Positions 35,229 through 52,430 of a stretch of DNA of 64,000 nucleotides are shown piece after piece. The stretch's first letter is position 1. Each line of letters opens with the position of its first letter. A program made the translations under genes and the position numbers. The stretch comes from Methanobacteriota archaeon (GTDB taxonomy: Archaea > Thermoplasmatota > Thermoplasmata > SG8-5 > JAGLSY01): contig JAEHCO010000003.1 in assembly GCA_020697715.1 (NCBI GenBank), positions 96,001-160,000 on the forward strand, written 5' to 3'. The notes beneath the pieces were generated by a model, which saw nothing but the letters and a program-made list of their open reading frames with translations, made no database searches and was not told the origin of the DNA.

Positions 35229-36086
35229 TCATCCTGTCCAGGTTTCGAATACCCATTCTACTGAATCCCCATCCTGAAGAACATACTGGCCCGCGCCTAC
35301 AGGTCCGTATTCTCCATCGATATACCATATCCAGTAATAGGCCGAGGTGTCATCGATCCCACCGACCGTGCTTCCTGGTGAGATGCCTTCGATCCCATTG
35401 ACGAACTCGCCCCATCCGAAATCCTGCATATCGAGGCTGTCATATCCAACCGCCTCTTCTAAGGCTCCAAGAGCTGTGTAATTGTCTGTTATCATCGTAT
35501 GGTTCTGATAGGTTCCATTGCCGAAGTTGATTATCACTTCGACAGAGATGCCAGTTTGTTCAAAAACACCACTCGGACCGTCAGCAACTATGAAATTAAC
35601 ATCTATCTCCTGGCCATCATGCACTATGGCGATATCATCCTTCGCGACAAAGGACTCGTTGGTCACTGGAGCCTGAAATCCATCGAAGGAATAGGACCAC
35701 CACATGCTGGCCGTATCCCCTATTCCCTGTACCGTGACATTGTTAGCCACATTGTTAATTGACTCAAGATATGCGACGCCTTCCATGCTGCGTCCCATCT
35801 CGAACATGTCATCTCCGATACTGGCCGCCAGCACTCCAGGAAGCGTGTTATTGGTCGTGGTCACATTGTGCCATTCCACATCCCCATTCCCATAATCGAT
35901 GATCAAAGTCACTGAGATCTCATCGGGATTGATCTCCACTTTATTCATTTCCTGCATGAGAATTATTCCACCGATAGCGGCTCCTATCACCAATGCGACT
36001 ATGACCATGGGCATCCAGCCCAATTCCGCCTTCTCTTCTTCTGCCAATCTGAATCTCTCCATTTCATTCCGAGCTTTTGAATACAA
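35229..36086 (-). CDS. Membrane-anchored protein with two DUF4430 (transcobalamin C-terminal-like) domains
   Basis: Two repeats of IxYGNG...ING...WxYxxDG; C-terminal GAGQYVLQDGDSVEW; true start may be the TTG near 36047. Confidence 0.78.
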   Translation of the reverse strand: MYSKARNEMERFRLAEEEKAELGWMPMVIVALVIGAAIGGIILMQEMNKVEINPDEISVTLIIDYGNGDVEWHNVTTTNNTLPGVLAASIGDDMFEMGRSMEGVAYLESINNVANNVTVQGIGDTASMWWSYSFDGFQAPVTNESFVAKDDIAIVHDGQEIDVNFIVADGPSGVFEQTGISVEVIINFGNGTYQNHTMITDNYTALGALEEAVGYDSLDMQDFGWGEFVNGIEGISPGSTVGGIDDTSAYYWIWYIDGEYGPVGAGQYVLQDGDSVEWVFETWTG

Positions 36087-36130
36087 TCACTTCGTTCTCG
36101 TATTCAATCACCTTTCCACCTCTTTTCGAG

Positions 36131-36828: not shown

Positions 36829-38040
36829 TCAGAAGGTTCCGATCTTGCCCTTGACAACGAGGTTGGTGATCTTGCTGGTATCCTGTAACCAGCCGTCAAC
36901 GACTCCTTCGATGTCTGACTTGACATCCTTCATCTTGACACTGTCTGCAAGTTTCACCTTCACACTGGCTGCCTGTGGATTGTTAATTGGCATTCCGATC
37001 TGTGATAGAAGGCGGACATGACATTCCAGTATGTCCCCGCCACCGACCTTTGCAACATCCTGGGCGATCTGATTTGATAATAGATTGTAGATCTTTCCAA
37101 CATGTGTCACCGGGTTCTTTCCAGATGTGGCTTCCATGCTCATCGGTCTGTATGGGGTGATCAATCCATTTGCTCTGTTTCCCCTGCCTACTGAACCATC
37201 GTCGCCGTTCTCCATTGATAAACCTGTTACGGTCAGGTAGTAGATACCTTTCTTGTAATCATCAGCTGTATTGACATCCACATTGATCTCACGCTCGGTG
37301 AATCTCTCTGCCTGTTTGTGAACTTTATCTTTGAGCTCCTGAACAACGCTCTTGTAGTGGTCACTATCCGGGATCTCTTTCCCGACCATGGCTGCTGCCA
37401 CTGTGATATTTATCTTGTTTCCGATCCTGGCTGCCATTACCTTGACATCCTCTCCAACTTCTGGCATGGACTTCTTCAGTCTACCATTGATGTATTGTTC
37501 AGCATCCAAGACGATCGTCTCGGTCTCGCTGAAGGGCGCGTGGCCAACACCGAATGAAGTATCATTGGATAGGAAATCCTTTGGTTTATTATCATAGACA
37601 CCCATGAGATCGACCGATCCCTTGCTTATCATGCAGTCCAGCATGACATCTGCATCGACATCCAGGTGTGAGCAGTGCTTCTTCAGATACTTACGGGCGG
37701 CCTTAATGGCAACCGATCTGTATGGAAGTCTCTCACCGTCCACTTCGGTAGTAGCACGGCCGACAAGAAGAATGTAAACCGGCTCAAGAACAACTCCGCC
37801 TCCAAACTTAGGAGCTGACTGTCCACCCACGATCTGAGTTTCGTCAGTATTATGATGAAAGATATGATCATATTTTTCAAGGTACATGTTACAAAGGGAT
37901 CTTGACACGGACTCAGCCAGTCCATCGGCTATGCTGTCCGGATGTCCAATTCCCTTTCTCTCTACGATCTCAATTTCCTGCTTCTCGATGTACGTCTGTG
38001 CCAAAGGCTCGACAAAGATATTTCTTTTCATATCAAACAT
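36829..38040 (-). CDS. mat: Archaeal S-adenosylmethionine synthetase
   Basis: [33 protein letters not shown] and [12 protein letters not shown] motifs. Confidence 0.96.
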
Positions 38041-38052
38041 TCCTGAGTTATG

Positions 38053-38134
38053 ATTGAATTATCACCAAGCATGGCTTGGGTTGAATTCAATAGGGCTCAT
38101 ATCCCAAGCTTTTGCATTGGGGAGCCCTTATTAG
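38053..38134 (-). promoter_or_regulatory. Two-hairpin leader element, copy 1 (mat 5' UTR)
   Basis: AGGGCTC/GAGCCCT stem followed by an ATTGAATT..CCAAGC/GCTTGG..AATTCAAT stem; homologous to 52271-52430. Confidence 0.65.
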
Positions 38135-38264
38135 TCAGCCTGCAAATACGAGAGTTGATAAAACCCTTTCGGTTGAATTTGCTTTTTCCATGCCTAAATA
38201 TGCATTATCGCACTCATCTTTGACAATATCTCTAATATCACTATCTGGATAGCTCTTAGGGGAC

Positions 38265-39179
38265 TCATATTCTAGATACGATATCAACCACAACACTGAT
38301 ATCATTCAGTGTGAATAAATGAACGCCAGGTGCTCCCATTTCCTTCAGTTTCTGGCACAGCTCGACAGAAAAGTCAATACATACTTTTCTGGCTTCCTCT
38401 GGCCCGAGTCCTTTCAATGACTCTTTCAAACTATTTGGTACATTGGCCTTGAACACTTCTTCCGCAACCTTCACATGCTCGGCCTTGGTGACTGGCCTGA
38501 TCCCTGGGATCACTGGAATATCGATGCCTCTCTCTTTCAATTTCTTTACATAATCCGAATAAGCATCTGCATCGAATATCATCTGGGTGATGGCGAAATC
38601 CGCTCCTTTCTTCACCTTCTGTTCCATGACCATGAGCTCCTTGTCCATGTCATCAGCTTCTGGATAGGCCGCTATTCCGATACAGAAATCAGTCTCCATA
38701 CCGTTCCTTGGCTGGCTGGTATCTTTGAGATGAATATATCTACCTTTGTTCATATCATCTACCTGGCCCACGAGCTCGGATGCATATTGATTGTGTTGCT
38801 CAGGATCTAGAGGACACTCGGGCTCGCCCTTTATCGGATCACCCAGCACAGCCAGTATATTCCTTATTCCGAAATAAGTATGGTCCACAAGCATATTTTC
38901 CACATCACGCTTGTTCATGTCCCGGCATCGAAAATGTACCAGGGAGTTCATCCCATACCTCTCGGATATCATGTAGCCAATGGGAATTGTTCCACCGCGC
39001 ATGCTCCCCATCGCTCCCTTGGTTATACTGATAAAATCAAGGTCCAGCTTGCTCAATTCTTCTATCTTCTTGAGGATGATCTCCGGGCTCTTCCCATTTC
39101 GAGGAGGGAAGACCTCCACGCTGATGGTGAAATTCTTTTTGGCAAGTATATTGGTTATCTTTTCAGGCTGGAACATCAT
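38265..39179 (-). CDS. metF: Methylenetetrahydrofolate reductase family protein
   Basis: SVEVFPP, HFRCRD, LGDP, AAYPE, AITQMIFD and GVHLFTLN motifs. Confidence 0.88.
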   Translation of the reverse strand: MMFQPEKITNILAKKNFTISVEVFPPRNGKSPEIILKKIEELSKLDLDFISITKGAMGSMRGGTIPIGYMISERYGMNSLVHFRCRDMNKRDVENMLVDHTYFGIRNILAVLGDPIKGEPECPLDPEQHNQYASELVGQVDDMNKGRYIHLKDTSQPRNGMETDFCIGIAAYPEADDMDKELMVMEQKVKKGADFAITQMIFDADAYSDYVKKLKERGIDIPVIPGIRPVTKAEHVKVAEEVFKANVPNSLKESLKGLGPEEARKVCIDFSVELCQKLKEMGAPGVHLFTLNDISVVVDIVSRI

Positions 39180-39239
39180 AAGCTGGAATACTGCCTTTGA
39201 TTAAAAATCTTTGTTTATCCCAATACATATCTCGGATCA

Positions 39240-39707
39240 TCAAAATATTTTGGCCAGGTTACCATTTTGTCCCGTGTAGCCTAGCTTCGCATACAAGGCT
39301 TTGGCCGGTTCATTGTGATCGAAAACATGGAGGGCGATGATGCCGATGCCCATGTCCTTCGCCTTATCTTCCATTGCCTTGAAAGTGCTCTCTCCATAGC
39401 CTTTCCGTCGGTGTTCTTCAAATATCTGGATATCGATTATGAAGATCAATTCCTGATCCTGGCCTTCAGCCTTCGCGAACCACAGACCGCCCACTTGAGT
39501 ATCTTCGCCTTCCACAATATTGAAGAAATAATGGTCTTGTGTATCGAGACCATTGTTCAGCACCTTGCTCTTCATCTCTTTCATATTATCCAGGGCATTG
39601 GACTCGGTCCATTCACCAGCCTTTATCTGGGACCGCATATGGTCTTTCATGGAAATTTCCATGAATGCCTCATACTGGTCGGTGTTCATTGATTCTAATT
39701 TTATCAT
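39240..39707 (-). CDS. GNAT acetyltransferase
   Basis: HRRKGYG acetyl-CoA motif and LHVFDHNEPAKALY. Confidence 0.9.
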   Translation of the reverse strand: MIKLESMNTDQYEAFMEISMKDHMRSQIKAGEWTESNALDNMKEMKSKVLNNGLDTQDHYFFNIVEGEDTQVGGLWFAKAEGQDQELIFIIDIQIFEEHRRKGYGESTFKAMEDKAKDMGIGIIALHVFDHNEPAKALYAKLGYTGQNGNLAKIF

Positions 39708-39823
39708 CGATATTCACTGTATGGGAAATATAGTGTGGCCTTATATTTGTTGTGTGATATTATGACCATCAATTCAAAAATATCTTATATCCATCTTCCA
39801 ATCCGGTTACGAGTGTGATATCG

Positions 39824-40924
39824 ATGTCAGAAGTTTATTTTGCCAAAGTGGGCGCCAGCAAGCACAATGAAAGACTCCCGAATAAAGTTCGCCAGCTATT
39901 TGACAAAGCTGGTTTTAATGATCTGATAACGGAGAAGGACATGGTCGCTCTCAAGCTTCATTTTGGAGAGCCTGGGAATACGACTTTTCTCAGACCGCAA
40001 TTCACTCGCCAGATAGTGGATAAAGTGAAAGAATATGGTGGCAAGCCTTTCTTGACTGACGCCAACACACTCTACACTGGCCAGAGGTCGAATGCGGTGG
40101 ATCATCTCAATGCCGCTGCCCTTCATGGATTCCTGCCAGCGGTTGTCGACGCCCCCATCATCATCGCGGATGGACTTACTGGCCGCGATTTCGTCGAGGT
40201 GGATGTGGATCTGAAACATCTGAAAACGGTCAAGTTCGGAGCAGCTGCCTATCACGCTGACGTTATAGGAGCGATATCTCATTTCAAATGTCACGTTGTC
40301 GGTGGTATCGGTGGCGCGATAAAGAATCTGGGCATGGGCTTAGGAAGCCGAGCTGGCAAACAGCAGATGCACTCGGATACCAAGCCAATTGTCGAAGGAG
40401 AGAAGTGCATAGGTTGCGGTACATGTGCGAAATGGTGCCCGGAGGATGCGATAGACATTCCGGACAAAGCGATCATCAACCAGGATAAGTGCATCGGATG
40501 TGGAGAATGTCTCATCCAATGTCCGACCAAGGCCATTAATGTGAGATGGGATGCCAGCAGCAAGAACATGCAGGAGAAAATGGTCGAGTACACCTATGGA
40601 GTGATGAAGAATAAAAAAGACAAGACATTCTTTTACAATTTCCTGCTGGACATAACACCGGATTGCGACTGCGTGCCCTGGAGTGGGAAGCAGATAGTGC
40701 CAGATATTGGAATAATGGCTTCAACCGATCCGATAGCCATTGACCAGGCGTCTGCGGATCTGGTAAATCAACAGACGGCCAATCCAGGCTCGAAGATAAA
40801 GACCAATGTGAACCCGGGTGATGACAAGATACATGAGGTTCATAATATCGACTGGGATCTGCAACTGAAATACGGTGAGGAAATTGGTCTGGGTAGTCGG
40901 CAATATAAGATAATCGAGATCTAA
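39824..40924 (+). CDS. DUF362 Fe-S protein with 2x[4Fe-4S] ferredoxin domain
   Basis: KLHFGEPGN, IKNLGMG, CIGCGTC...CIGCGEC and PDCDC motifs. Confidence 0.9.
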   Translation: MSEVYFAKVGASKHNERLPNKVRQLFDKAGFNDLITEKDMVALKLHFGEPGNTTFLRPQFTRQIVDKVKEYGGKPFLTDANTLYTGQRSNAVDHLNAAALHGFLPAVVDAPIIIADGLTGRDFVEVDVDLKHLKTVKFGAAAYHADVIGAISHFKCHVVGGIGGAIKNLGMGLGSRAGKQQMHSDTKPIVEGEKCIGCGTCAKWCPEDAIDIPDKAIINQDKCIGCGECLIQCPTKAINVRWDASSKNMQEKMVEYTYGVMKNKKDKTFFYNFLLDITPDCDCVPWSGKQIVPDIGIMASTDPIAIDQASADLVNQQTANPGSKIKTNVNPGDDKIHEVHNIDWDLQLKYGEEIGLGSRQYKIIEI

Positions 40925-40949
40925 TTAGATTGAATATAGTAAGATAAAT

Positions 40950-41648
40950 TCAATTCCCATCCAGCTCAGTCAGCACCTTCTGAAGCTTATCAGGTCTATC
41001 TGTGATGATGCCGTCAACATCCAATAATGCCAGCTTCTTCATTTTGATAGGGCAGTTGATCGTCCATACAAAGACCTCCATATCATTCTCATGGGCTTTG
41101 TCAACCAATTCCTGGCTCACCAGCTTATACTCTGGAAATATTGCGCAAGTTCCCAGTATCTTGGCCACCTGCATGATATTGGCTTTCCTGTCATCGCATG
41201 AATAGCCAGTTCTGGCCTTCTCCTTGTCCTTGAGTTGGGCGACCGCGATCCCGTCCTTTGAAGTGAATATCACCCTATCCAGCATATCGGCCTTTTTCAC
41301 AACTTTGTACGCGGGTATCATGGCCTTCCTGGTCTTAATATCTAAAATTATCCCACATTTCCCCCCGAAGGTTTCCAGAATATCAGCCAGCTTTGGAACT
41401 GCCTCTTTTCTCTTCACCTTCAGCTCACTCAGCTCTGAATATTCCGTCTGGCTGAGGAATCCAGCTCCATTGGTCATGCGATTCAGCTTCTCATCATGCA
41501 ATATGACAAGGATGTCATCCTTCGTTATCCTGACATCCAATTCGACATAACTGGCTCCGAATTCCAGGGCCTTTTCTATTGCTGAAACCGTGTTCTCTGG
41601 AGCAAGACTTCTTGCTCCCCTGTGTCCGATGATGGCTGGCTTTTTCAT
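40950..41648 (-). CDS. Glycerophosphodiester phosphodiesterase
   Basis: HRGA...PENT, ELDV, HD, WTIN and DGIITD motifs. Confidence 0.92.
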   Translation of the reverse strand: MKKPAIIGHRGARSLAPENTVSAIEKALEFGASYVELDVRITKDDILVILHDEKLNRMTNGAGFLSQTEYSELSELKVKRKEAVPKLADILETFGGKCGIILDIKTRKAMIPAYKVVKKADMLDRVIFTSKDGIAVAQLKDKEKARTGYSCDDRKANIMQVAKILGTCAIFPEYKLVSQELVDKAHENDMEVFVWTINCPIKMKKLALLDVDGIITDRPDKLQKVLTELDGN

Positions 41649-41710
41649 TGGGAGAGATAATACTAGCATTGGATAAAAACAATGTCATGTCCCAAAACGG
41701 CCTATATGAT

Positions 41711-42439
41711 TCAGTCTTCAGATGTCTGGCTTTCATCAGACTTATCTTCATCAGGTTGATATTCATCAGCCTGACCTTTTTCTGTCTGGCCTTCGATCTC
41801 TTCCTTCTTTTTCACTCGGCTGAAGTATAGGATTATGGCAACTATCGCTCCGCCGATGATAGATGATATTATGACAAGGGATTCGAGGTTCATCTCCATA
41901 TTGTTCAGTGTGAACGCTCCTGCAATTCCAACTATGAGTCCTCTTGATAGTCCCGCCCAGAAATTTGTCTGGACGAACCATTTCATCTCGAAGACCTCCC
42001 CGTCCTTATTGAGCAGGGAGAATATGTAGAGGGTGATGGTGTCTGGCATTATCGGAAGGCTTAGAATGAGGTAAATGGCAATGTATCCGAACCTCTCGCA
42101 GAATCTAGTTAGGAATTCTGTAAGACCCACGAACCACTTCCACTTGAACCATACTCGAATACTATCTTCGATCTTCTCTCCAATTATGAAGACCATCCAG
42201 CTCCCTACGGCCTTGCCAAGTCCCATGACCAGGCTTACGATAAAAAAGGCTGGGAAAATAGTGGTGAAGCCCAGGAACTCCCCACCCTCTACGATGAAGG
42301 GAATAAAACCCGCCAATCCTAATTCGACAGGGATAGGCAGAATGACTGCAGCTAGCACGCAGAATATGAAGAATAGTAAGAGGTAAGTGTATGGATTGTT
42401 CATGTCCAGCATACCCATCAGATCATCAATGAAGCCCAT
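41711..42439 (-). CDS. DedA/VTT-like membrane protein
   Basis: LPIPVE, GKAVGS and LSLPIMPD motifs; multiple TM helices. Confidence 0.65.
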   Translation of the reverse strand: MGFIDDLMGMLDMNNPYTYLLLFFIFCVLAAVILPIPVELGLAGFIPFIVEGGEFLGFTTIFPAFFIVSLVMGLGKAVGSWMVFIIGEKIEDSIRVWFKWKWFVGLTEFLTRFCERFGYIAIYLILSLPIMPDTITLYIFSLLNKDGEVFEMKWFVQTNFWAGLSRGLIVGIAGAFTLNNMEMNLESLVIISSIIGGAIVAIILYFSRVKKKEEIEGQTEKGQADEYQPDEDKSDESQTSED

Positions 42440-43371
42440 TATTCATCCCCTATTATCAAGTCCGAGGCATCCTTGCCAAGTACGAGAACACGGCTCTCGG
42501 GAGCTTCATCCAGTATCTGGAATCCCATCTCGTGTCCCAGCTTTTCTCCGAATTCCCGAACCTTATCGTATTTTGGCATATTCGCCATGGTCATCCTCTC
42601 ACGGGAATATCCAACGTACACATAACCTTTTGGTTCTATGAAGAGTGGATCGGCCATCTTATCCAAATGAGCATATTCCTTTTCCCATCCTATGTTCCAT
42701 CCGTCTACCAGGGTGTGCCGAATGACTGTCCTGGTATCAAGGCTGGCCATGATCTCCAGGCTCTTCTGCAATCTCCCCCAGCCGTCCTTAACAAGAGGCA
42801 CGCATAATCTCTTGTATATCTCCCGGGTGGGAGCGGCAACTGTGATATAAAGCTGGGTTGGAAGTGGGTCCAGGTTCTCAAGAACTTCTGGCTGGATACC
42901 ATTACTGACAATGAAAGTTGTCATATTTCGCTTATGACATTCTTCAATGAACTCTCCCAATCTGGAATATAGTGTGGGCTCTCCGGATAATGATATGGCC
43001 ACCTGATTTGGCTCGAAGGCCTCCTTCCATATCTCTGGACTGCATCTGGCATCCCCCTTGTACCCTGTGATGAGCTTTCTCTGACCCTCAATACAGCCAT
43101 CCAGTATCTCGATGGGATCATCTTCATCCTGTATGCCCAGTTCATTCATTCCCTGGAATCTCCAGCAGAACAGGCAATTATGTGTGCAATGGGAGACAGT
43201 GGGGGTCATCTGAAGGCATCGATGTGATTCGATACCATAGAACCTTTCTTTGTAGCAAGGTCGATCCCTGAGAAGCTTTTCACCCATCCAGTGGCAGAGT
43301 TTCACGCCACTGTGCTCCCCCACGACATGATAATGCTGCTTCTCCAGTATCCTCTTCATATCGTCATTCAT
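42439..43371 (-). CDS. taw1: 4-demethylwyosine synthase (Taw1/TYW1 radical SAM)
   Basis: KLCHW, CYKERFYGIESHRC, CTHNCLFC and AISLSGEP motifs. Confidence 0.95.
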   Translation of the reverse strand: MNDDMKRILEKQHYHVVGEHSGVKLCHWMGEKLLRDRPCYKERFYGIESHRCLQMTPTVSHCTHNCLFCWRFQGMNELGIQDEDDPIEILDGCIEGQRKLITGYKGDARCSPEIWKEAFEPNQVAISLSGEPTLYSRLGEFIEECHKRNMTTFIVSNGIQPEVLENLDPLPTQLYITVAAPTREIYKRLCVPLVKDGWGRLQKSLEIMASLDTRTVIRHTLVDGWNIGWEKEYAHLDKMADPLFIEPKGYVYVGYSRERMTMANMPKYDKVREFGEKLGHEMGFQILDEAPESRVLVLGKDASDLIIGDE

Positions 43372-43388
43372 TTTTCATCTCCTCATCT

Positions 43389-44843
43389 TTAAAAGTCAAA
43401 AAGGTTCTTCTGTTTTGTTGGCTCTGGAACATCTGGCTTTATCTTCTCGTCACCCACATTTTCCTGGGTCATATCGTTATCCTCATCATCGTCCCCATCA
43501 TCTTTCTGCTTGTTTCGAGCCTTTACCGAACTTTGCTTCTTCTTGCTAATATCATCAAATACATTCTTGACATGATTAGAATCCGGCTTCTCATCCATAA
43601 GGAAGCCGACCTCATATTCTCCCAATGAAAGCTTTTCTGTCATCTGTAGGCAGAATTCCCTATCTGAATTGAAAAGAAGTTTGAAATAAGGAAGCTGGTC
43701 TTGAAGTGCTTGCTCCCTCGAGGTGTGCATCAACTTCCCCAATTTCGAGCCTATGGAATTTCTCACCTCTCTTATTCCTTTTGATCGCGACATATTGGTG
43801 AGCCAGCTTGGGAATTGGTATCGGACGAATCCTCTGTATTCCCTGCTTTTGGACAGTGAGACACCCGCACTCATCATAGCCGATGAATATTTCCAGAGAC
43901 CATAATATTGCCTTCTTTGGACCCTGCCCAGATATACATCGGCCTTGGAAACTGCTTCATAGGCTCTCATCCTGTCACCCGAGAGAGAATATGAGACTGG
44001 TATGTTCTCATCTATCCATAATATCGTATAGTTCGGATCCTCGTCAAGCTCCATCAATGCATCTCGTGAGACCCTGCAATTGTTAGTCCTGAATACTTTG
44101 GCCATACCCTGGAATATAGTACTTTTCTGATCTCTTCCACCCAAGGCCAGAACATCCTTCTCTGTGAGCTTTTCTTTCCCCTCTACCAATGACTGGAGAT
44201 CATTCACTGCCCCTCTAATGTCTCCTTCACATCTCTTTGATATCGCTCTTACAGCATCGGGGCTGACATCCACTCCCTCTTTATGGGCGATCTCCCTGAG
44301 CAGTTTGGCTATAGATGCAGGCTGTGGTTTTCTATATTGTATCTGCAATGCCTTGTTGGATATTATGGATGATCTTCGTTTCAATGAGTAGAAATCATTC
44401 ACTATTAAGATGACTGGCTGCATGGTATTGGTGATAAGTTCACCCATTGCTTTGATCCCACCACGATCTTCTTTTCCGAAGACATTGTCTGCCTCATCAA
44501 GTATTATCAGCTTTCTGCCGCCTTCCTTGCTGCTTGTGAACTCTCCCGAATCTGTGAAAGTATCCCACATCGCACCAAGGCCAGCTATGCTCTTTATGGC
44601 ATTGGCATTTCTTGAATCAGATGCATTGAGCTCCACAACCTGCCAGCCATATTCGCGAGCAACCGCATGTGCACTGGTCGTCTTTCCGATGCCTGGCTCT
44701 CCAATGAGTATCACAGCCCTATTCTTTTTCGGGATGCCATTATTCCATGTTTCAGCCCAGCTCCTAAGCTTCGAAATTGCCTCTGAATTACCAATGACGT
44801 TCTCTAAGTCATTTGGTCGGTATTTGCCTGTCCAATCCTGCAT
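43389..44843 (-). CDS. rfcL: Replication factor C large subunit
   Basis: WTGKYRP, GEPGIGKT, ELNASD, LDEAD and C-terminal PIP box QKNLFDF. Confidence 0.95.
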   Translation of the reverse strand: MQDWTGKYRPNDLENVIGNSEAISKLRSWAETWNNGIPKKNRAVILIGEPGIGKTTSAHAVAREYGWQVVELNASDSRNANAIKSIAGLGAMWDTFTDSGEFTSSKEGGRKLIILDEADNVFGKEDRGGIKAMGELITNTMQPVILIVNDFYSLKRRSSIISNKALQIQYRKPQPASIAKLLREIAHKEGVDVSPDAVRAISKRCEGDIRGAVNDLQSLVEGKEKLTEKDVLALGGRDQKSTIFQGMAKVFRTNNCRVSRDALMELDEDPNYTILWIDENIPVSYSLSGDRMRAYEAVSKADVYLGRVQRRQYYGLWKYSSAMMSAGVSLSKSREYRGFVRYQFPSWLTNMSRSKGIREVRNSIGSKLGKLMHTSREQALQDQLPYFKLLFNSDREFCLQMTEKLSLGEYEVGFLMDEKPDSNHVKNVFDDISKKKQSSVKARNKQKDDGDDDEDNDMTQENVGDEKIKPDVPEPTKQKNLFDF

Positions 44844-45028
44844 TCCAATCCTCTAATGATTAGGCTTCTAAATACATTTGCCTTGTTTCCAATATTCGTC
44901 ATGCCAGCCCAATCTTATTCTCAACCTTTTTCCTTAATATACTATATAATTAATGATTTAACGGTCACGTTTATATACAAGTATGTATTCCTCAGCATAC
45001 TTCCCAGAAGCAAAAAATATACTGGAGG

Positions 45029-45514
45029 GTGACATTGGCAGATAATAAGAAACCTACGGATATTGAGAAAGACGACGATTTCAAGTACATATTGAGATTG
45101 TCCGGTAATGACATAGATGGTGAGAAGCCAGCTTTCGTTGCACTTACGGACCTGAATGGGATCGGGATCCGTATCTCAGAGATATTGATAGAAAGATTGG
45201 GGTACCCCCGTGACAAGGCCATCGGACACATGAGCGATGAAGATGTCGAAAAGCTCGAGGATTTGCTAGAAAGTCTCGAGGAAACTATACCCCAGTGGTT
45301 GCTCAACAGAAGGAAGGATTGGGAATCAGGCGAGGACCTTCACCTTTTTGGTATCGAGCTTGAACAGACTAATAAAGATGACATTAACAGGATGAGAATG
45401 ACCCGTTGCTACAAAGGTGTAAGGCATGATACGGGCCAGAAGGTCAGAGGTCAAAGAACCAGATCCAATGGTAGGAAAGGATTGACACTCGGCGTATCCA
45501 AGAAAAGAGGCTAA
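45029..45514 (+). CDS. rps13: 30S ribosomal protein uS13
   Basis: PQWLLNRRKD and KVRGQRTRSNGRKG motifs. Confidence 0.96.
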   Translation: MTLADNKKPTDIEKDDDFKYILRLSGNDIDGEKPAFVALTDLNGIGIRISEILIERLGYPRDKAIGHMSDEDVEKLEDLLESLEETIPQWLLNRRKDWESGEDLHLFGIELEQTNKDDINRMRMTRCYKGVRHDTGQKVRGQRTRSNGRKGLTLGVSKKRG

Positions 45515-45529
45515 TTGAGGTGAGTGATT

Positions 45530-46384
45530 TTGGGAGACCCTAAGTTCAGTAGAAGACGGTATGCTACACCATCACATCCTTGGCAAAAAGAAAGGATAGA
45601 TGAAGAGAATGAGATGATCAGAAAATACGGTCTTAAGAATAAGAAGGAACTCTGGAAGGCACAGTCCCTCCTGAGGAACTTCAGACAGAGATCCAGGATC
45701 CTTCAGGCTCAGATCAGGTATGGTAATAAGCAGGCGGAGAAGGAAAGAGACCAGCTTCTGGCCAGATTAGAACGTGCAGGAATACTCGGTAGCGAGGCTT
45801 CCCTGGATGATGTTCTGGCATTGGATGTTGAGGCTGTACTTACAAGAAGATTGCAGACCCTGGCATACATGAAGGGACTGAGCAACAGTGCGAAACAAGC
45901 CCGCCAGTTCATTGTTCATGGACATGTATCCATCGGAGATAGGAAGGTAACTATTCCCGGTTATTTGGTCAAGAGGACCGAAGAAGAATCCATTGAATAT
46001 CTATTAAGCTCGCCGATAGCGAATGACATGCATCCAGCAAGACCAAAGGATGAATTGGAATTGGCTGAGCAGAAGAGAATGCAGGAAGAGGCCGCCAAGG
46101 CCGCGGAAGCACCAGTTGCCGCACCAGAAGGCGCAGATGCTCCAGCCGTGGAACCAAAACCAGAGGGCGAGGCACCAGCAGCAGAGGTAAAACCCGCAGA
46201 GGCTAAGCCAGCTGAAGCAAAACCTGAACCAAAGGTTGAAGCAGCTCCAGCAAAGGAAAAGCCTGCAGAGGCTAAGCCAGCTGAAGCAAAACCCGAACCA
46301 AAGGTTGAAGCAGCTCCAGCAGAGAAAAAGCCTGCAGAGGCTAAGAAGCCAGCAGAAGATAAACCAAAGGAGGCCAATGAATGA
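45530..46384 (+). CDS. rps4: 30S ribosomal protein uS4 with long A/E/P/K-rich C-terminal extension
   Basis: GDPKF...YGLKNKKE, RRLQT and QARQFIVHGH motifs. Confidence 0.96.
   Translation: MGDPKFSRRRYATPSHPWQKERIDEENEMIRKYGLKNKKELWKAQSLLRNFRQRSRILQAQIRYGNKQAEKERDQLLARLERAGILGSEASLDDVLALDVEAVLTRRLQTLAYMKGLSNSAKQARQFIVHGHVSIGDRKVTIPGYLVKRTEEESIEYLLSSPIANDMHPARPKDELELAEQKRMQEEAAKAAEAPVAAPEGADAPAVEPKPEGEAPAAEVKPAEAKPAEAKPEPKVEAAPAKEKPAEAKPAEAKPEPKVEAAPAEKKPAEAKKPAEDKPKEANE
46196..46345 (+). repeat. 69-bp in-frame tandem repeat (about 2.2 copies) in the uS4 tail
   Basis: gcagaggctaag recurs at 46196, 46265 and 46334; unit AEAKPAEAKPEPKVEAAPAxxKP. Confidence 0.9.
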
Positions 46385-46436
46385 GCGAATGTAATGAGCG
46401 CATTCATAAGCTCCGATCTCAAGGAGGAGATTCAGA

Positions 46437-46820
46437 ATGACCAAATGGGCCCTAGCACACATATACGCATCTTACAACAATATATTGATAACATTGACCG
46501 ACCCAACCGGTGCAGAGACAATTACGAAATGCACTGGAGGTATGGTTGTCAAATCTCAGAAGGATGAATCATCTCCATATGCAGCCATGAAGGCAGCAGA
46601 GATGATCGCCGATATCGCAAAGGAGAGGGGCATCGACAGTGTTCATGTCCGTGTAAGAGCTCCAGGCGGTAACAAAGACCTTTCCCCTGGACCAGGAGCA
46701 CAGGCCGCGATCAGAGCACTGGCAAGGGCGGGTTTGAGAATAGGAAGGATAGAGGATGTAACCCCTATCCCTCACGACGGCACCAAGAAGAAAGGCGGCA
46801 GACGTGGAAGAAGGGTGTAA
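46437..46820 (+). CDS. rps11: 30S ribosomal protein uS11
   Basis: [22 protein letters not shown] and [10 protein letters not shown] motifs. Confidence 0.97.
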
Positions 46821-46824
46821 TCAA

Positions 46825-47889
46825 ATGGATATCAAGATCATTGATATTAAGGACGATTTCATCAAATTCGTCATATCTGGCGTTGACTTCAGCTTTGTGA
46901 ATTCCATCAGAAGGACACTTTTGGCCGATATACCTAAAATGGCCATTGAGGATGTTGAGATCCATCTGGGAGCAATAAGCGATGAGGAGGGTAAGACATA
47001 TGAGAGCACGACCCCTCTTTTCGATGAGATAATCGCTCACAGAATGGGCCTGATACCTATCCCAACAGACCTGGATATGTTGACCTTCAAAGATGAATGT
47101 GATTGCGAAGGTGAAGGATGTGTCAATTGCAGCATCATGTACTCTCTGAATAAGAGGGGGCCATGCACTGTTTACTCTGGTGACCTGGAGCCATTGGGCG
47201 ATCCAAGCCTGAGGCCAAAGGATACCAAGATACCAATAGTCAAGCTTACGGAAGATGAGGGTATCCTTATCTACGCGACCGCCACAATGGGAACTGGTAA
47301 GGGGCATGCGAAATGGCAGGGAATTCATGGTGCTGGCTACAAATTATATCCTACAGTTGACATCGATCCAAAAAAATGTGACAATGGCGGAGGGTGCATA
47401 CCGATATGCCCAGTCAATGTCTTTGTAAAGGAAGGAAAGAAGGTCAAGATGGTCAATACGGAGAACTGCACAATGTGCAATAGCTGTGTGGAGATATGCG
47501 AATTAGGCGCTGTCACCATCGGCCATGAGGAAGATAAGTTCATATTCAGATTCGAGACAGATGGTTCGCTCTATGCAAAGGACGCACTTCTCTATGCAGT
47601 GGCTCACTTAGGAGCATCCTTCGAGGGAGTGATCGACCTTGTTGAAACCATGAAGCCAAAGGAGTACAAACCGATCGAGGCCGTGAAATTGAACTTCGAT
47701 CATGAGGAAAATCCAGAAGGCGTGGCATATATTCCAGCAGGTGAAAGCACTCACGCTCCTGAAGAGGAGACAGAGGAAGAGGAAGAACCTGTTGCTGAGG
47801 AAGAGCCAGTTGTCGAGGAAGAGAAGCCCAAGAAGAAGGCAGCTGCCAAAAAGAAGGCACCTGCAAAGAAAGCAGCCAAAAAGAAATAG
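46825..47889 (+). CDS. rpoD: RNA polymerase subunit D (Rpo3) with ferredoxin-like insert and acidic/Lys-Ala tail
   Basis: NSIRRTL, DEIIAHRMGLIP and HAKW motifs; CDNGGGC..C and CTMCNSC Cys clusters. Confidence 0.95.
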   Translation: MDIKIIDIKDDFIKFVISGVDFSFVNSIRRTLLADIPKMAIEDVEIHLGAISDEEGKTYESTTPLFDEIIAHRMGLIPIPTDLDMLTFKDECDCEGEGCVNCSIMYSLNKRGPCTVYSGDLEPLGDPSLRPKDTKIPIVKLTEDEGILIYATATMGTGKGHAKWQGIHGAGYKLYPTVDIDPKKCDNGGGCIPICPVNVFVKEGKKVKMVNTENCTMCNSCVEICELGAVTIGHEEDKFIFRFETDGSLYAKDALLYAVAHLGASFEGVIDLVETMKPKEYKPIEAVKLNFDHEENPEGVAYIPAGESTHAPEEETEEEEEPVAEEEPVVEEEKPKKKAAAKKKAPAKKAAKKK

Positions 47890-47932
47890 GCTTCCGATCT
47901 CTCGTATCTATAATGATCATAATAGACGCAAA

Positions 47933-48004
47933 GCCGCTGTGGCTAAGGGGTATAGCGATTCATTGGTAATGAATAGGTCGTGGGTTCAATTCCCATCAGC
48001 GGCT
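47933..48004 (+). tRNA. tRNA-Thr(GGT)
   Basis: GCCGCTG/CAGCGGC acceptor stem, anticodon arm ATTCA-TTGGTAA-TGAAT, T-loop TTCAATT. Confidence 0.95.
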
Positions 48005-48024
48005 CCTTATTATTTTATTAGTGT

Positions 48025-48240
48025 TAGCTGATGGGAATTGAATCAAGCCCGTAAGTGCATATTATCTGAATGCTGGCTCAATGTAAGGGCGCAGGTTGAA
48101 ATTTACGTTTATTGGTATTTTACTTGTAGTAAATTTCAATACATGCTCTTGTCTAGGGCTCTTTGCATTTTTTAAGACAAGTCTGGATTTATGTTAATAG
48201 CCTTGTCCAGTATAGCTGATGTGGAATTGAACCAAGCCCG
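48025..48240. repeat. 27/28-bp direct repeat pair, each copy antisense to the tRNA-Thr T-arm/acceptor
   Basis: tagctgatgggaattgaatcaagcccg (48025-48051) and tagctgatgtggaattgaaccaagcccg (48213-48240). Confidence 0.8.
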
Positions 48241-48274
48241 AAAGAGTTTTAACCGCCTCCCCAATCTCCAAGCA

Positions 48275-50275
48275 ATGAAAGTCAAGACCCAAATGTCAAA
48301 TTTCGATATCTCAGCCTTTGTTAGAGAGAGTCAGGATTATCTCGGTATGCAGGTGGAGAAGGTATTCCAGATGTCCTATACCGAGGTCTGGCTTCGGCTT
48401 TCTGCCAAAGGCAAAAAAGCGACCCTCGTGGTCAAGCTGGGCAAGGCCATGTGGTTTGAAGATGAATATCTGAAATCCGATCTTCAGCCGCCGAACTTCG
48501 CCATGTTGATGAGAAAATACCTGGGTAAAAAGAGGTTGAATTCTATTAGCCAGCATGGTTTTGACAGGATCGTCGTGATGGAATTTGGAGCTGAGAATCA
48601 ATTCAAACTTATAATCGAGGGCTTCGGCAAGGGTAATATGATCCTGGTCGAGGGAGATAAGATAATAAAGCCCATGACATCCAAATCATGGAGGCACCGG
48701 GATATCAAGCCAGGTGCGATCTACAAATTCCCTCCAGAGGGTATCAATCCATTGGATCTCGATCTGGAGGATGTATCCGAAATATTGACTGGCTCGGACA
48801 GAGACATGGTCCGAGCATTGGCCACACAGGTCAACCTCGGCGGTAGTTACGCCGAGGAGATCTGCGAATATCTTGATCTTGATAAATCCATGAAAGCAAG
48901 TGAGGTGAATGAATCCCAGATCGCCAGTATCATGGAGGCCATGGGTTCCCTGATAGCTCGTCTGGATACTCCATTCCCGGTGATAAAATATGATGATGGG
49001 GAAGTTTTGGATTTCCTCCCCCTTGCTTTGCAGGACCTTTCTGATAGAGAATATAGGTCATTCGACACCTTCAATATCGCTCTCAAGGAATATTTCAATT
49101 CCCTTCCAGATGTCGTGAATGATGAGGATGAGGATTATGTATCGCCTGAGACCCAGCGCCTTGAAAGACAGGCTGAACATCAGACCGAGGCCATTGAAAA
49201 GATGGAATTCGATATAGTGGAGTATCAGCGATTGGGCGATCTCATATATGCGGAATATGCCAGGTTCGAGAAGATACTGGCAGCTACAAGGGCCATACTG
49301 GATGACAAAGGCTGGAAGGCATCCAAGGCGGAGCTGGAACAATGGGACAAGGTGATATCTTTTGACCCGGATTCCGGCATATTGGAGATGAAGTTGGAAG
49401 ATGATTCTCACATCTCATTGGATGTGAGGAACAATGTGAATGACAATGCTGGTTTCCAATATCACAAATCCAAGAGATCGAGGAAAAGACTTGAAGGGGC
49501 GAGGGAAGCCCTGGGCGAGACCCTCGGACTTCTTAAAAAGACCATGAAGGAGGATTTCAAGAAGACAGTCGCTCGTAAAAAATCACCAACCCGTCAGATG
49601 TGGTTTGACAGGTATCGGTGGTTCCTTTCAAGCGAGGGATTCCTCGTGGTGGGGGGACGAGATGCCAGATCCAATGACAAGGTGGTGAAGAAGCATCTGA
49701 AAGATGATGGCATCTATGTTCATGCGGATATACATGGAGCTCCCAGCATAATCGTGATGAAAGGCCGTGATGCTGGTGAAGATACTCTCACTGAGGCCTG
49801 TGAGTTCGGAGTTTGCCAATCAAAGGCATGGAAGGCCAAGCTAGCCAGCGGCAATGCCTTTTGGGTCAAGCCAGACCAGGTGAGCAAAACAGCTCAGCCC
49901 GGGGAGTTCCTCGCAAGAGGGGCATTCATGATAAGAGGCAAGAGGAATATCCAAACCAAGCTGGAAATGAAATTGGCCATTGGAGAGATAATGTTTGAAG
50001 GTGAGCGCAAGATCATGTGCGCCCCCATAAGCTCCATGAAGGCCCACACTTCGGATTTCTACGAGATAATACCTGGAGAGATGAATTCCAATATATTTGC
50101 TAAAAAGGCATCCGACCATTATAATGTGCCGATCGAGGAAATAAGTAGAATATTACCTCCTGGGGATCTTGATATTGTTCGTTCACCCTCTGTAATAAAA
50201 GTAGATCCAGAGCCCGAAGTCGATACAGGTTCTGAAGTTGATATTGATAATGAAGTTGATATAGATACCGAATAG
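48275..50275 (+). CDS. rqc2: Rqc2/RqcH (NFACT) ribosome quality-control factor
   Basis: MSNFDI, Q.GFDR, GKGN, WFDRYRWF, HADIHGAP and GAFMIRGKRN motifs. Confidence 0.92.
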   Translation: MKVKTQMSNFDISAFVRESQDYLGMQVEKVFQMSYTEVWLRLSAKGKKATLVVKLGKAMWFEDEYLKSDLQPPNFAMLMRKYLGKKRLNSISQHGFDRIVVMEFGAENQFKLIIEGFGKGNMILVEGDKIIKPMTSKSWRHRDIKPGAIYKFPPEGINPLDLDLEDVSEILTGSDRDMVRALATQVNLGGSYAEEICEYLDLDKSMKASEVNESQIASIMEAMGSLIARLDTPFPVIKYDDGEVLDFLPLALQDLSDREYRSFDTFNIALKEYFNSLPDVVNDEDEDYVSPETQRLERQAEHQTEAIEKMEFDIVEYQRLGDLIYAEYARFEKILAATRAILDDKGWKASKAELEQWDKVISFDPDSGILEMKLEDDSHISLDVRNNVNDNAGFQYHKSKRSRKRLEGAREALGETLGLLKKTMKEDFKKTVARKKSPTRQMWFDRYRWFLSSEGFLVVGGRDARSNDKVVKKHLKDDGIYVHADIHGAPSIIVMKGRDAGEDTLTEACEFGVCQSKAWKAKLASGNAFWVKPDQVSKTAQPGEFLARGAFMIRGKRNIQTKLEMKLAIGEIMFEGERKIMCAPISSMKAHTSDFYEIIPGEMNSNIFAKKASDHYNVPIEEISRILPPGDLDIVRSPSVIKVDPEPEVDTGSEVDIDNEVDIDTE

Positions 50276-50276
50276 A

Positions 50277-52046
50277 TCAGTATCCGGCTTTGATGTTCTC
50301 AACCATGGCGAGGCATTCGTTCATCTTATCAAATGATTCCTTGAATTTCCTTTCTTCAAGGAGTTTTTTCGCCATGCTGACCGAATCTATTATTCGATCC
50401 ACATTCTGGCCTTGTATCTTCATGTCCCTGGCCATTTGAGCTATAAGCCCTAGATCTTCATTGGCCTTATTGACGAAGGCCTCTTCTATCTGTCTTCGTC
50501 CCTGTTTCATGAGGGCGACTGCTCCATGCAAGTTCTGTTTCTTGCTCTCATTGACCCCCTGGGCGATGATCTTCTTCTGAGGCAATACGTCTATGGATAA
50601 TTCCTTGGCAAGTAATAGAAGCGGCTTAATGGCACCTGCGTGAATAGCGAGACTTCTCTTCAGAACCTTTGGATCCTCTTCAGGTTCTGGCTCCGGTTCT
50701 GCCTCCATGACCTCGATGGTTTCCTCGACGATCTCTTCCTCTTCCGGAACTTCTTCTTCTTCCACGGTTTCGTATATGACTTCCTCTTCCGGAACTTCTT
50801 CTTCCACGGTTTCGTATATGACTTCCTCTTCCGGAATTTCTTCTTCCACGGTTTCGTATATGACTTCCTCTTCCGGAACTTCTTCTTCAATGAATTCTGG
50901 TGCTGCGACCTCAGGTTCTTCAGTTTCCTGGAATTCTTCCACGGTCTCGTATGTGGTTGTTTCTTCTTCCGTGGGATCATCAACTTCTTCGTTCTCTGGT
51001 ACATCAGATAGGATATCATCATCTTCGACATCCTCCAATGATCCGGATTCTATCGTGGAAGGTTGGATGGCTTCAAGGACATCCGTATCTGACATCTCTC
51101 CATCATCCAGATCATCTATGTCCTCATATGAAGGTAATTCAAATCCCTGGGATGAAATAACATGTGAATAGCAATCTGCGGCTTTCATTGGCTCGCTCAT
51201 CTTATTGTATACCTCGGCCTTGGATATCCAGGCATTTTGATATCCATCATCTATCTCCAGAGATTTATCAAAGGATGCCAGTGCCATATCGAACTCTTCC
51301 ATCTTCATGAGGGTCGAACCTCGTGCGTACCACAGCTCTTTATTGCTAGGATCCTCCTTTAGTTTTGTATCGTAATATGCCAGAGCCATCACATCTGGGT
51401 CATCACCATCAGCTCCCTGTTCCTGATGGTCGCGTAGTGTTGTGCCACATTCATAGCATCGGAATTCGAATGAGCTCACGATCGTATTGCATAGAGGGCA
51501 TGCATTCTCTTCCTCTATCTGAGCAAGATCCAGCTCCTTGCTTCTGATCTCTTCAAGGTCAATATCCCTCAGAGCTGTTTTGATCTCTCCAGCTGATTTT
51601 CGGCCTATGCCTTTTATCTTGACCAATTCCATTACAGAAGCTCTTTTCAGCTTCCTCAGATCTCCGTAGCCAGCGCCCAGAAGGATCTCCGCTCTAAGAG
51701 GTCCGACACCTGGAAGTTTTAGAAGATCTTCCATCTCCTTATCTATGTTCTCAGGGTCAAAGGTTCCACTGAGATTTAGATCATCAATATCCATATCTGG
51801 GTCAGGTTCCGAGAGAATGATCTCTTCCTCATCTGGCTCTTCGATAGTTTCATACTCATCATCCGAGGCCATTCCGATGCGGGTGCCACATTCATTACAG
51901 ATATTCTCCCCTTGTGGGACTATGTTTCCGCAGTCCGGGCACTCTACTGGCTCGGGTGCGGTGAAAACAGTTCCACATATGCTACAAGTTCCCTCATTAG
52001 CATTGATGGAGCCACCACAAATGGGACAATTATCACCAGACGTCAC
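50277..52046 (-). CDS. Uncharacterised Zn-ribbon / HhH / TPR / acidic-repeat protein
   Basis: Three CxxC...CxxC pairs; LPGVG and IKGIG HhH motifs; two TPRs; E-rich repeats; helical C-terminus. Confidence 0.8.
   Translation of the reverse strand: MTSGDNCPICGGSINANEGTCSICGTVFTAPEPVECPDCGNIVPQGENICNECGTRIGMASDDEYETIEEPDEEEIILSEPDPDMDIDDLNLSGTFDPENIDKEMEDLLKLPGVGPLRAEILLGAGYGDLRKLKRASVMELVKIKGIGRKSAGEIKTALRDIDLEEIRSKELDLAQIEEENACPLCNTIVSSFEFRCYECGTTLRDHQEQGADGDDPDVMALAYYDTKLKEDPSNKELWYARGSTLMKMEEFDMALASFDKSLEIDDGYQNAWISKAEVYNKMSEPMKAADCYSHVISSQGFELPSYEDIDDLDDGEMSDTDVLEAIQPSTIESGSLEDVEDDDILSDVPENEEVDDPTEEETTTYETVEEFQETEEPEVAAPEFIEEEVPEEEVIYETVEEEIPEEEVIYETVEEEVPEEEVIYETVEEEEVPEEEEIVEETIEVMEAEPEPEPEEDPKVLKRSLAIHAGAIKPLLLLAKELSIDVLPQKKIIAQGVNESKKQNLHGAVALMKQGRRQIEEAFVNKANEDLGLIAQMARDMKIQGQNVDRIIDSVSMAKKLLEERKFKESFDKMNECLAMVENIKAGY
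50740..50889 (-). repeat. 42-bp in-frame tandem repeat (about 3.5 copies), PEEEVIYETVEEE(V/I)
   Basis: ccgga recurs at 50744, 50789, 50831 and 50873. Confidence 0.9.
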
Positions 52047-52151
52047 AATACCCAGTATGTGATATATAAATAATATACTTTTCTCCTATGGGTATTTAAT
52101 ATTTTTCATTGCTCAAGCTTGAGCAATGGAAAATCCAAATAATATGGAAAG

Positions 52152-52268
52152 TGCCCGAACCGGAATTCGAATCCGGGTCAAAAGCTCCGCAAGCTTTCAG
52201 GATATCCTTTGTAGGAGCAACACGAAGCCTCGCAAGGCGAAGTGATGCTCTAGCTACCCCATTCGGGC
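52152..52268 (-). tRNA. tRNA-Arg(GCG) with a 43-nt D-loop intron (52209-52251)
   Basis: GCCCGAA/TTCGGGC acceptor, AAAGC-TTGCGGA-GCTTT anticodon arm and CCGGA-TTCGAAT-TCCGG T-arm; removing 43 nt gives a normal 74-nt cloverleaf. Confidence 0.88.
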
Positions 52269-52270
52269 GT

Positions 52271-52430
52271 ATTGAATCATCCCAAAGCTAATACCACAAT
52301 CTTTAGATTTTTAGATATAGAGTGATTGTGGTTAGCTTTGGTTGATTTCAATAAGGGCTCACTATCCTCAGTTCATCTTTACAGATTAACTGAGAGGATA
52401 CCCACGGCTGAAGCCGGGGAGCCCTCATTG
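52271..52430 (-). other. Two-hairpin leader element, copy 2 (upstream of tRNA-Arg)
   Basis: AGGGCTC/GAGCCCT multistem followed by a long ATTGAA..CCAAAGC/GCTTTGG..TTCAAT hairpin; homologous to 38053-38134. Confidence 0.65.

Follow-up and report, generated by a model that had tools for sequence, protein, structure and literature searches.

Structured repeats ahead of metK and a tRNA-Arg gene in a Thermoplasmata genome are probably non-autonomous IS200/IS605-family elements

Introduction

Two related sequences, each predicted to fold into two hairpin domains, lie on the minus strand of a 64,000 nt stretch of the genome of a Methanobacteriota archaeon of the class Thermoplasmata (GCA_020697715.1, contig JAEHCO010000003.1, positions 96,001 to 160,000; the whole stretch is referred to here as the window). 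One is positioned ahead of metK, the AdoMet (S-adenosylmethionine) synthetase gene, and the other ends just before an intron-containing tRNA-Arg(GCG) gene, which raises the question of what a shared structured sequence is doing at two such different genes. An earlier, sequence-only reading of the window proposed an undescribed 5'-leader RNA module and, alternatively, a promoter-targeting miniature mobile element. We conclude that both sequences very probably represent one IS200/IS605-family transposable element that is non-autonomous and belongs with the palindrome-associated transposable elements (PATEs).

Results

The window sequences belong to a dispersed two-domain repeat family

The two sequences are present in the gene contexts first described for them, with their ends set as in Table 1, and the count of matching hairpin arms (16/18 and 15/18, including a C-G to A-U swap) is correct as read from the sequence. 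Copy 1 has a predicted folding energy of -33.2 kcal/mol (z -5.6) and copy 2 of -66 kcal/mol (z -8.3 folded as RNA, z -9.5 as DNA), and for neither did any of 200 dinucleotide shuffles fold as well. Copy 2 is an expanded version of the copy 1 fold: a whole extra hairpin (UAUCCUCUCAGUU..AACUGAGGAUA) replaces the AUAU bulge of domain 1 to give a three-way junction, and the distal hairpin of domain 2 is related to one conserved in the family, CCGCA.ACCUAAAGGU.GCGG, according to the minimum free energy (MFE) structure and alignments. The 3' tip of copy 1 lies 10 nt 3' of the domain 2 inner hairpin.

A covariance search of the genome and its relatives, as the sequence-only reading had proposed, used a model specific to the window's genus (R1), which scores copy 1 at 74.8 bits (E 8e-15) and copy 2 at 73.2 bits. 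Together with motif scans it identifies 11 full copies and one truncated copy (contig C11:404404-404451) in the 2.12 Mb window genome; the R1 search listed 14 matches, but three of these merely repeat known copies as weak signals on the reverse strand. R1 matches number 14, 9 and 14 in the other three genomes of the genus. The core of the element is AUGAGGGCUCCCCAA-variable-GGGAUAUGAGCCCUUAUUGAAUnCAaCCCAAGC-variable-GCUUGGGGAUgAUUCAAUA, the inner hairpins of the two domains are alike (CCCAA.GC..GC.UUGGG), and lengths are 75-228 nt in the window genome and about 74-239 nt in its genus. Whole extra hairpins are tolerated at three loop positions, and it is because they come and go there that copies in the genus range from 75 to 239 nt. 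Two looser stems at 36077-36107 and 48096-48140, which had been offered as relatives, do not belong to the family, as the covariance model with filters off returned nothing below E = 8; they are simple AT-rich hairpins on the minus strand (TTGAATAC..GTATTCAA and ATTGAAATTTAC..GTAAATTTCAA).

Outside the genus, R1 matches only two genomes of another family, with one weak match each (6/61 sampled genomes of the class in all, the window's own included). A 15-mer from the 5' end, with at most one mismatch, reaches further and is found in 15/22 genomes of the order, with counts of up to 27, 26 and 16 per genome compared with 0-1 for a reversed-pattern control; by family, and not counting the window's own genome, it occurs in 4/4 (f1), 10/13 (f4), 0/2 (f2) and 0/2 (f3) genomes. 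Among 251 class genomes the multi-copy 15-mer is confined to families f1 and f4, with a few copies in one genus of another family, and elsewhere there are only singletons at about the control level. Copies in other genera have the same architecture and are usually 230-260 nt long. A broad scan of contigs with the 15-mer gave mostly chance matches, with true copies only in metagenome-assembled genomes (MAGs) of Methanobacteriota or Thermoplasmata; none of 21 viral contigs sharing the 15-mer matches the covariance model, and candidate 5' ends with 2-3 mismatches are chance matches.

Several other candidates were considered and rejected. In a by-eye search for hammerhead, K-turn, C/D-box, H/ACA and bulge-helix-bulge motifs the core positions do not fit; a small open reading frame (ORF) starting at ATG is precluded by the ATA found there in copy 1; and att sites of an element integrated between the two window copies are ruled out by the many other copies. 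Rfam searches with the window, both copies and ten full-size relatives, at the gathering threshold and at E<=10, gave no relevant match, in agreement with the sequence-only reading, which had recognised no family.

The element is mobile

Filled and empty sites were compared using the sister genome G003, in which flanks are 82-93% identical to those of the window genome. Among the 14 G003 copies, two are orthologous to window-genome copies (the tRNA-Arg copy and one other), five correspond to sites at which the window-genome flanks abut within 5 nt, six to other element-free sequence, and one is unresolved. The reverse comparison covered four window-genome copies, the metK copy among them (the truncated copy and five full ones lay outside it), and none of the four G003 sites holds the element. 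At three of these sites, metK included, the G003 flanks abut or overlap, and at the fourth (C11:276596) 9-10 nt of other sequence replaces the element. Two G003 copies (L043 and L044) differ at 2/174 nt and have unrelated flanks, and in another genus copies are nested inside copies. The element is mobile: the metK copy is a lineage-specific insertion, and the tRNA-Arg copy, with a G003 orthologue identical at 154/162 positions between flanks that are 84-90% identical, is an older insertion common to the two species. Junctions were also compared with G001 and G002, which are more distant, and no empty site that could be used came from either.

The junctions have the form ..A-AT/GAGGG....TTCAAT/A... 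(slashes mark the boundaries), in which AT is all that is shared and the boundary is ambiguous by two bases. Nine filled/empty pairs share at most AT at both junctions, which could be a 2-nt duplication or target plus the tip of the element, and a target duplication of more than these 2 nt is absent from all nine. Conservation in the flank consists of an A at -1 (26/39 copies in the genus, 44/47 in other genera), then A and T, and is at background beyond the A at -1. The proposal of a promoter-targeting miniature mobile element is borne out in its mobile and miniature part, whereas promoter targeting is not supported: A-A-T is the only flank signal, and short archaeal intergenic regions would on their own place most insertions near a gene start. 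The TATA-like boxes that had been tied to the element belong to the host genes, as the sister species has the same box equally far from its empty metK site.

The tRNA-Arg(GCG) gene is associated with the element elsewhere in the order also. In G020, which belongs to another family, this gene is flanked by element copies on both sides (L234, G020:C109:2791-5805), one of which is 2 nt from the tRNA 5' end in the orientation opposite to that of the window copy. It appears to have arisen by a separate insertion at that position, which suggests an insertion hot spot. Some copies are themselves interrupted, either by other small repeats or by a copy of the same family (L237 in G014:C5, L250/L253 in G010, and L259 in G010:C133), and it is within hairpin loops that they are broken, as after ..GACGATTA. 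At C11:241055 (L001) a second, partial domain-2-like sequence, AATGAATTCAACCCAAGCATGGGATGGATCAATA, lies about 80-115 nt downstream of the full copy and may be the remnant of another insertion.

An insertion sequence with a Y1 transposase has the same ends

Most matches to the 5' motif are miniature copies. In G020 and G019, the motif is also followed, 29-34 nt on, by a 147-aa ORF on the other strand. This ORF matches Pfam Y1_Tnp (E 1.3e-25) and the TnpA structures 2EC2, 2F4F, 2A6M and 2XM3 in PDB, with the HUH and Tyr motifs aligned, the best matches being the Sulfolobus, ISHp608 and ISDra2 TnpA proteins. Eight matches to this tnpA cover its C-terminus, and every one of them is located 29-34 nt from the motif. 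Left flanks were read for five tnpA-bearing copies, four from G020 and one from G019; all five differ, each gives way to the element exactly at (A/G)TGAGGG, and copies in the two genomes (G020:C33 and G019:C127) are collinear for about 700 nt, from the 5' motif to a conserved CCGCAGACCUAAAGGUCGCGG hairpin and AUGUUUAUUAA-like tail, with 80% amino-acid identity in tnpA and unrelated outer flanks. The different left flanks and the extended collinearity therefore indicate that the outer ends delimit a moving unit, which is, as predicted from its sequence, an IS200-group insertion sequence (IS) of about 700 bp with a Y1 (HUH) TnpA as its sole gene and with ends like those of the miniature copies.

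The relationship between the IS and the miniatures extends to the window. A G020 miniature copy matches the IS left end at 45/49 positions, and the long copies of the window genome match at 24/25 (left) and 43/58 (right). Copy 2 domain 1 matches the left end of the tnpA-bearing IS at 55/77 positions, and its distal hairpin matches the IS right-end hairpin at 23/33. These being the ends of an IS200/IS605-family insertion sequence, the element is not the new system it had been taken for. No transposase-size ORF was seen inside the window-genome copies, and no terminal inverted repeat in the aligned ends: when the 3' end is reverse-complemented and set against the 5' end, ATGAGGGCTCCCC, the two agree at only about 7/11 positions beyond AT, and each end of the element pairs with an internal segment and not with the other end.

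A plausible explanation for this organisation is that loss of tnpA from the ~700-bp parent would leave just the two end regions joined to each other, both of them built around a subterminal hairpin, so that the hairpins 1 and 2 noted originally would be these subterminal hairpins. In the IS608 system, as set out in PMC3201880, TnpA binds subterminal hairpins on one strand; its left cut falls in the flank adjoining the target, 19 nt 5' of the hairpin at that end, and its right cut 10 nt 3' of the other hairpin. The single-stranded circle then inserts 3' of a tetranucleotide with no gain or loss, a mode called 'peel and paste' single-strand transposition (PMC3201880, PMC5027513). By analogy, TnpA acting in trans would bind the subterminal hairpins of the miniature on one DNA strand and cut at the element tips, and the excised single-stranded circle would be pasted beside a short target, here A-A-T. 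Such pasting would need no terminal inverted repeats and would give no real target duplication, compensatory substitutions would preserve the hairpins needed for transposition, and at metK and tRNA-Arg the element would be co-transcribed as a passive structured leader.

The source of transposase in the window's own genus is less direct. The only Y1 gene of the window genome (contig C1:16359-16709) has no element motif within 1.5 kb. Across the four genomes of the genus there is no close homologue of the parent TnpA, only a Y1 gene with 28-30% identity, and element motifs flank none of eight distant Y1 loci (six genomes); because of these two findings the window copies are regarded as orphans. 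Self-BLAST of the window genome reveals no multi-copy transposase-sized repeat, and the TnpB zinc-ribbon PF07282 is above cut-off in 0/4 genomes of the genus, compared with 8/14 control genomes in the same search.

We considered whether the miniature is an unrelated structured mobile element with an unidentified enzyme, which was merely invaded by an IS200 element in one genus, Y1 not being its mobiliser. The tnpA-bearing form does have GC-rich hairpins of its own beside the tnpA start and stop; genomes of one genus (g5) have up to 27 copies (G010) and, like the window's genus, no close tnpA homologue; and the strong target specificity of IS200/IS605 elements makes repeated insertion at one site in a repeat conceivable. 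This explanation nonetheless has to accommodate a composite that is collinear in two genomes with different flanks and diverged tnpA genes, left flanks that all change exactly at the 5' end of the element, a tnpA of this type found only beside the motif, and the lack, noted above, of both TnpB and any other repeated transposase-sized DNA. We consider it distinctly unlikely.

Structured repeats with a 3' end against unique flanking DNA are also the general layout of omega RNA and reRNA scaffolds. The element, as an IS200/IS605-related structured repeat whose 3' end abuts unique sequence, could on that basis be the guide-RNA scaffold of a TnpB or IscB nuclease, with the flanking gene start as the guide. 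The PF07282 result, from a search that did not extend to IscB, argues against this, as do a parent IS that carries tnpA only and the lack of an Rfam match, and such a role is extremely improbable.

Covariation and gene placement

Double changes are seen in 17 of the 23 pairs of the consensus structure (4/6 in helix 1 and 4/4 in helix 2 of domain 1; 5/8 in helix 3 and 4/5 in helix 4 of domain 2), and 92.1% of alignment cells are paired compared with 37-54% when the partners are slid. One G-U pair is conserved in 38/42 copies; apart from it the numbers of G-U and A-C cells are equal (27 and 27), and there is thus no clear strand asymmetry. Covariation by itself is no sign of RNA, and it fits hairpins that are needed for transposition.

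The placement of copies relative to genes gave a mixed picture. Of the 11 full copies, eight are followed 2-40 nt downstream by the start of a co-oriented gene (six ORFs and two tRNAs), two are between convergent genes and one is antisense between two genes. Upstream gene ends are often as close to the copies as downstream starts, as expected for a compact genome. Among copies between tandem genes in four genomes, 13 are sense and three antisense, a count that drops two ambiguous cases and includes one orthologous pair twice. This bias could be explained by strand-specific insertion at replication forks, as described for IS200/IS605 elements in PMC5027513, or by selection on transcripts.

These data bear on the proposal of a functional cis-acting 5'-leader RNA (a signal for processing, stability or protein binding) that, having spread to many genes, is kept by RNA selection. 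The frequency of co-oriented gene starts, the sense bias, the covarying outer stems, the single conserved G-U pair, and the retention of the tRNA-Arg copy in two species are all in its favour. Set against these are the three full copies placed otherwise, the lack of a common function among downstream genes, the equality of G-U and A-C cells, and the alternative origin of the sense bias, together with the absence of a described RNA family. Moreover, the region upstream of metK in G003 is precisely without the element, three other sites filled in the window genome are also empty there, near-identical copies with unrelated flanks and nested copies show selfish spread, and a transposase-bearing parent exists. 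A leader RNA module of this kind is therefore very unlikely to be the nature of what is a dispersed repeat.

A narrower possibility is that single copies have a leader-RNA role, as host-captured 5' leaders or small RNAs. Two species retain the tRNA-Arg copy at 95% identity and a second lineage has an apparently independent insertion at the same 2-nt distance; the whole two-domain fold, beyond the transposase-binding hairpins, is kept by compensatory change; and the family is sense-biased. If so, the captured fold could protect transcript 5' ends, serve as an RNase P leader, or yield a regulatory RNA, and a precedent is reported for Salmonella IS200, in which the 5' end of the tnpA transcript yields a regulatory RNA (PMC12594629). 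We regard capture as unlikely.

Neighbouring features

Coordinates of the two copies, their domains and the adjoining genes are listed in Table 1.

Table 1. Positions of the element copies, their predicted domains and the adjoining genes in the window
Feature	Coordinates	Strand	Description	Basis
Copy 1 of element	38053..38131	minus	79 nt, minimal form; between MTHFR and AdoMet synthetase genes; ATAAGGGCTCCCC...GAGCCCTATTGAAT...ATTCAAT (38131-38053)	
Copy 1 domain 1	38092..38128	minus	outer stem GGGCUC/GAGCCC, inner hairpin CCCAA..UUGGG, 4-nt AUAU bulge	MFE structure
Copy 1 domain 2	38053..38091	minus	outer stem AUUGAAUU/AAUUCAAU, internal loop, inner hairpin CCAAGC..GCUUGG	MFE structure
Copy 2 of element	52270..52428	minus	159 nt, expanded form; ends 2 nt before tRNA-Arg; ATGAGGGCTCCCC...GAGCCCTTATTGAAA...GATTCAATA (52428-52270)	
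Copy 2 domain 1	52353..52426	minus	outer stem and inner hairpin as copy 1	MFE structure and alignment
Copy 2 domain 2	52271..52352	minus	outer and inner stems as copy 1, plus distal hairpin	MFE structure and alignments
AdoMet synthetase, archaeal (metK)	36829..38040	minus	outside element	Pfam PF01941, E 1.6e-168
tRNA-Arg(GCG)	52152..52268	minus	outside element	Rfam tRNA match on 3' part, 28.4 bits

The AdoMet synthetase ORF begins 12-13 nt past the end of copy 1. It adjoins an MTHFR gene (38265-39179) on the same strand, and the 224-nt spacer that carries copy 1 is intact and element-free in the sister species. The D-loop of the tRNA-Arg(GCG) gene is interrupted at about 52207-52249 by an intron of 43 nt, whose limits follow from comparison with the G020 tRNA-Arg(GCG) gene, which has none, and the G003 orthologue; the intron position is non-canonical, and the gene was missed by ARAGORN with default settings and by the Rfam gathering threshold. 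An intron of different sequence is also present in the sister species, and the orthologue in the other family has none.

As judged by reading the sequence, the neighbours of the Y1 gene of the window genome (L205) are msrA/msrB-like ORFs and a tRNA-like stretch; this Y1 gene lies in a rearranged context and is about 70% identical at the DNA level to the G003 gene. Elsewhere in the assembly, contig C3 (17.7 kb) is collinear with C11:335213-348877 at ~83% identity over ~13.5 kb, reflecting either a large diverged duplication or a contig of a related organism binned into the genome.

Discussion

The closest parallel to the element is provided by the PATEs of Haloquadratum walsbyi, which are described in PMC3119063 as derived from IS605-type transposons by core loss and defined there as having near-terminal palindromes, no inverted repeats and no duplication, and as being too short for a transposase; their movement is reported in the same source even where a matching intact transposase was not found. 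Compared with that account, the element is likewise too short for a transposase, has palindromes near both termini and no inverted terminal repeats, has ends related to an IS200/IS605-type transposon apparently through core loss, and shares at most an ambiguous AT at its junctions. It also has strain- or species-specific insertions even without a matching intact transposase, and small elements nested in its copies. It differs in that its host belongs to the class Thermoplasmata, a difference at the phylum level, and in that its parent carries tnpA only and not an IS1341-type tnpB. Its tips pair with internal segments to form two compact multi-helix domains, and whole hairpins come and go at three positions (PMC3119063 for the PATE side of these comparisons).

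The likeness to IS608, as far as that system is set out in PMC3201880 and PMC5027513, includes the ~150 aa Y1 HUH transposase of the parent IS, subterminal hairpins at both ends, a right tip set 10 nt past its hairpin on the 3' side, a short conserved motif in the flank of one end, the lack of inverted repeats and of any duplication beyond an ambiguous AT, and a strand or orientation bias. The differences are that the left tip is ~8 nt from its hairpin where IS608 has 19 nt, A-A-T is the whole of the flank motif, filled/empty junctions are not always exact, tnpA runs antisense to the direction that most copies share with adjacent genes, and transposition here is predicted from sequence. Bacterial REP/REPIN-RAYT systems, from the descriptions in PMC2817692, PMC3116915 and PMC3479197, are comparable in consisting of small extragenic hairpin repeats with compensatory changes and a Y1 HUH enzyme acting in trans. 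Unlike them, the single Y1 gene of the window genome is not flanked by the repeat, there are about ten copies and not hundreds, the two domains are different and do not form an inverted REP doublet, and a conventional tnpA-bearing IS with the same ends exists.

The element as found here is a small non-coding intergenic repeat predicted to be co-transcribed with genes, a property shared with classical MITEs (transposable elements of the miniature inverted-repeat kind). Classical MITEs such as Correia and ERIC are small non-coding intergenic repeats that end up in untranslated regions as stable stem-loops; they have terminal inverted repeats, and TA or longer target duplications made by DDE transposases. 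The element, unlike these, has neither terminal inverted repeats nor a fixed target duplication.

Several observations do not sit easily with an IS200/IS605-derived origin. The ~8-nt distance of the left tip from its hairpin is short compared with IS608, and several filled/empty pairs differ by one base or by a 1-4 nt indel at the junction, whereas IS608 excision is described as exact. The outer stems, formed by tip and internal segment, covary although TnpA is not known to require them, and this could be a sign of selection on RNA, to which the 13:3 sense bias is also relevant. The tnpA gene is antisense to the orientation in which the hairpins were originally read, and the hairpin-to-tip geometry is plausible in either orientation. 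Only two loci show the right end of the tnpA-bearing form. Lastly, there are the divergent Y1 gene and the unflanked Y1 loci, and the G003 copies look recently moved although the genus lacks a close parent TnpA. In view of the shared ends, the empty sites and the junction structure, we nevertheless favour with considerable confidence the interpretation that the window sequences are PATE-type, non-autonomous copies of an IS200/IS605-family element.

A new leader-RNA system that ties SAM synthesis to a tRNA, attractive as it was, is not supported, and a documented mobile-element reading takes its place. The IS200-group insertion sequence and its miniature derivatives in uncultured Thermoplasmata are previously unlisted, in that no literature description of them was found, in a search that did not include ISfinder. 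The repeats have practical consequences: they break assemblies, since many matches to the 5' 15-mer lie ~127 nt from contig ends, and their copies mimic conserved structured RNAs in covariation screens. Species-specific insertions are useful as marks for strain tracking, and the family constitutes a compact natural test set of how far an IS200/IS605 end can lose parts or gain hairpins and yet spread.

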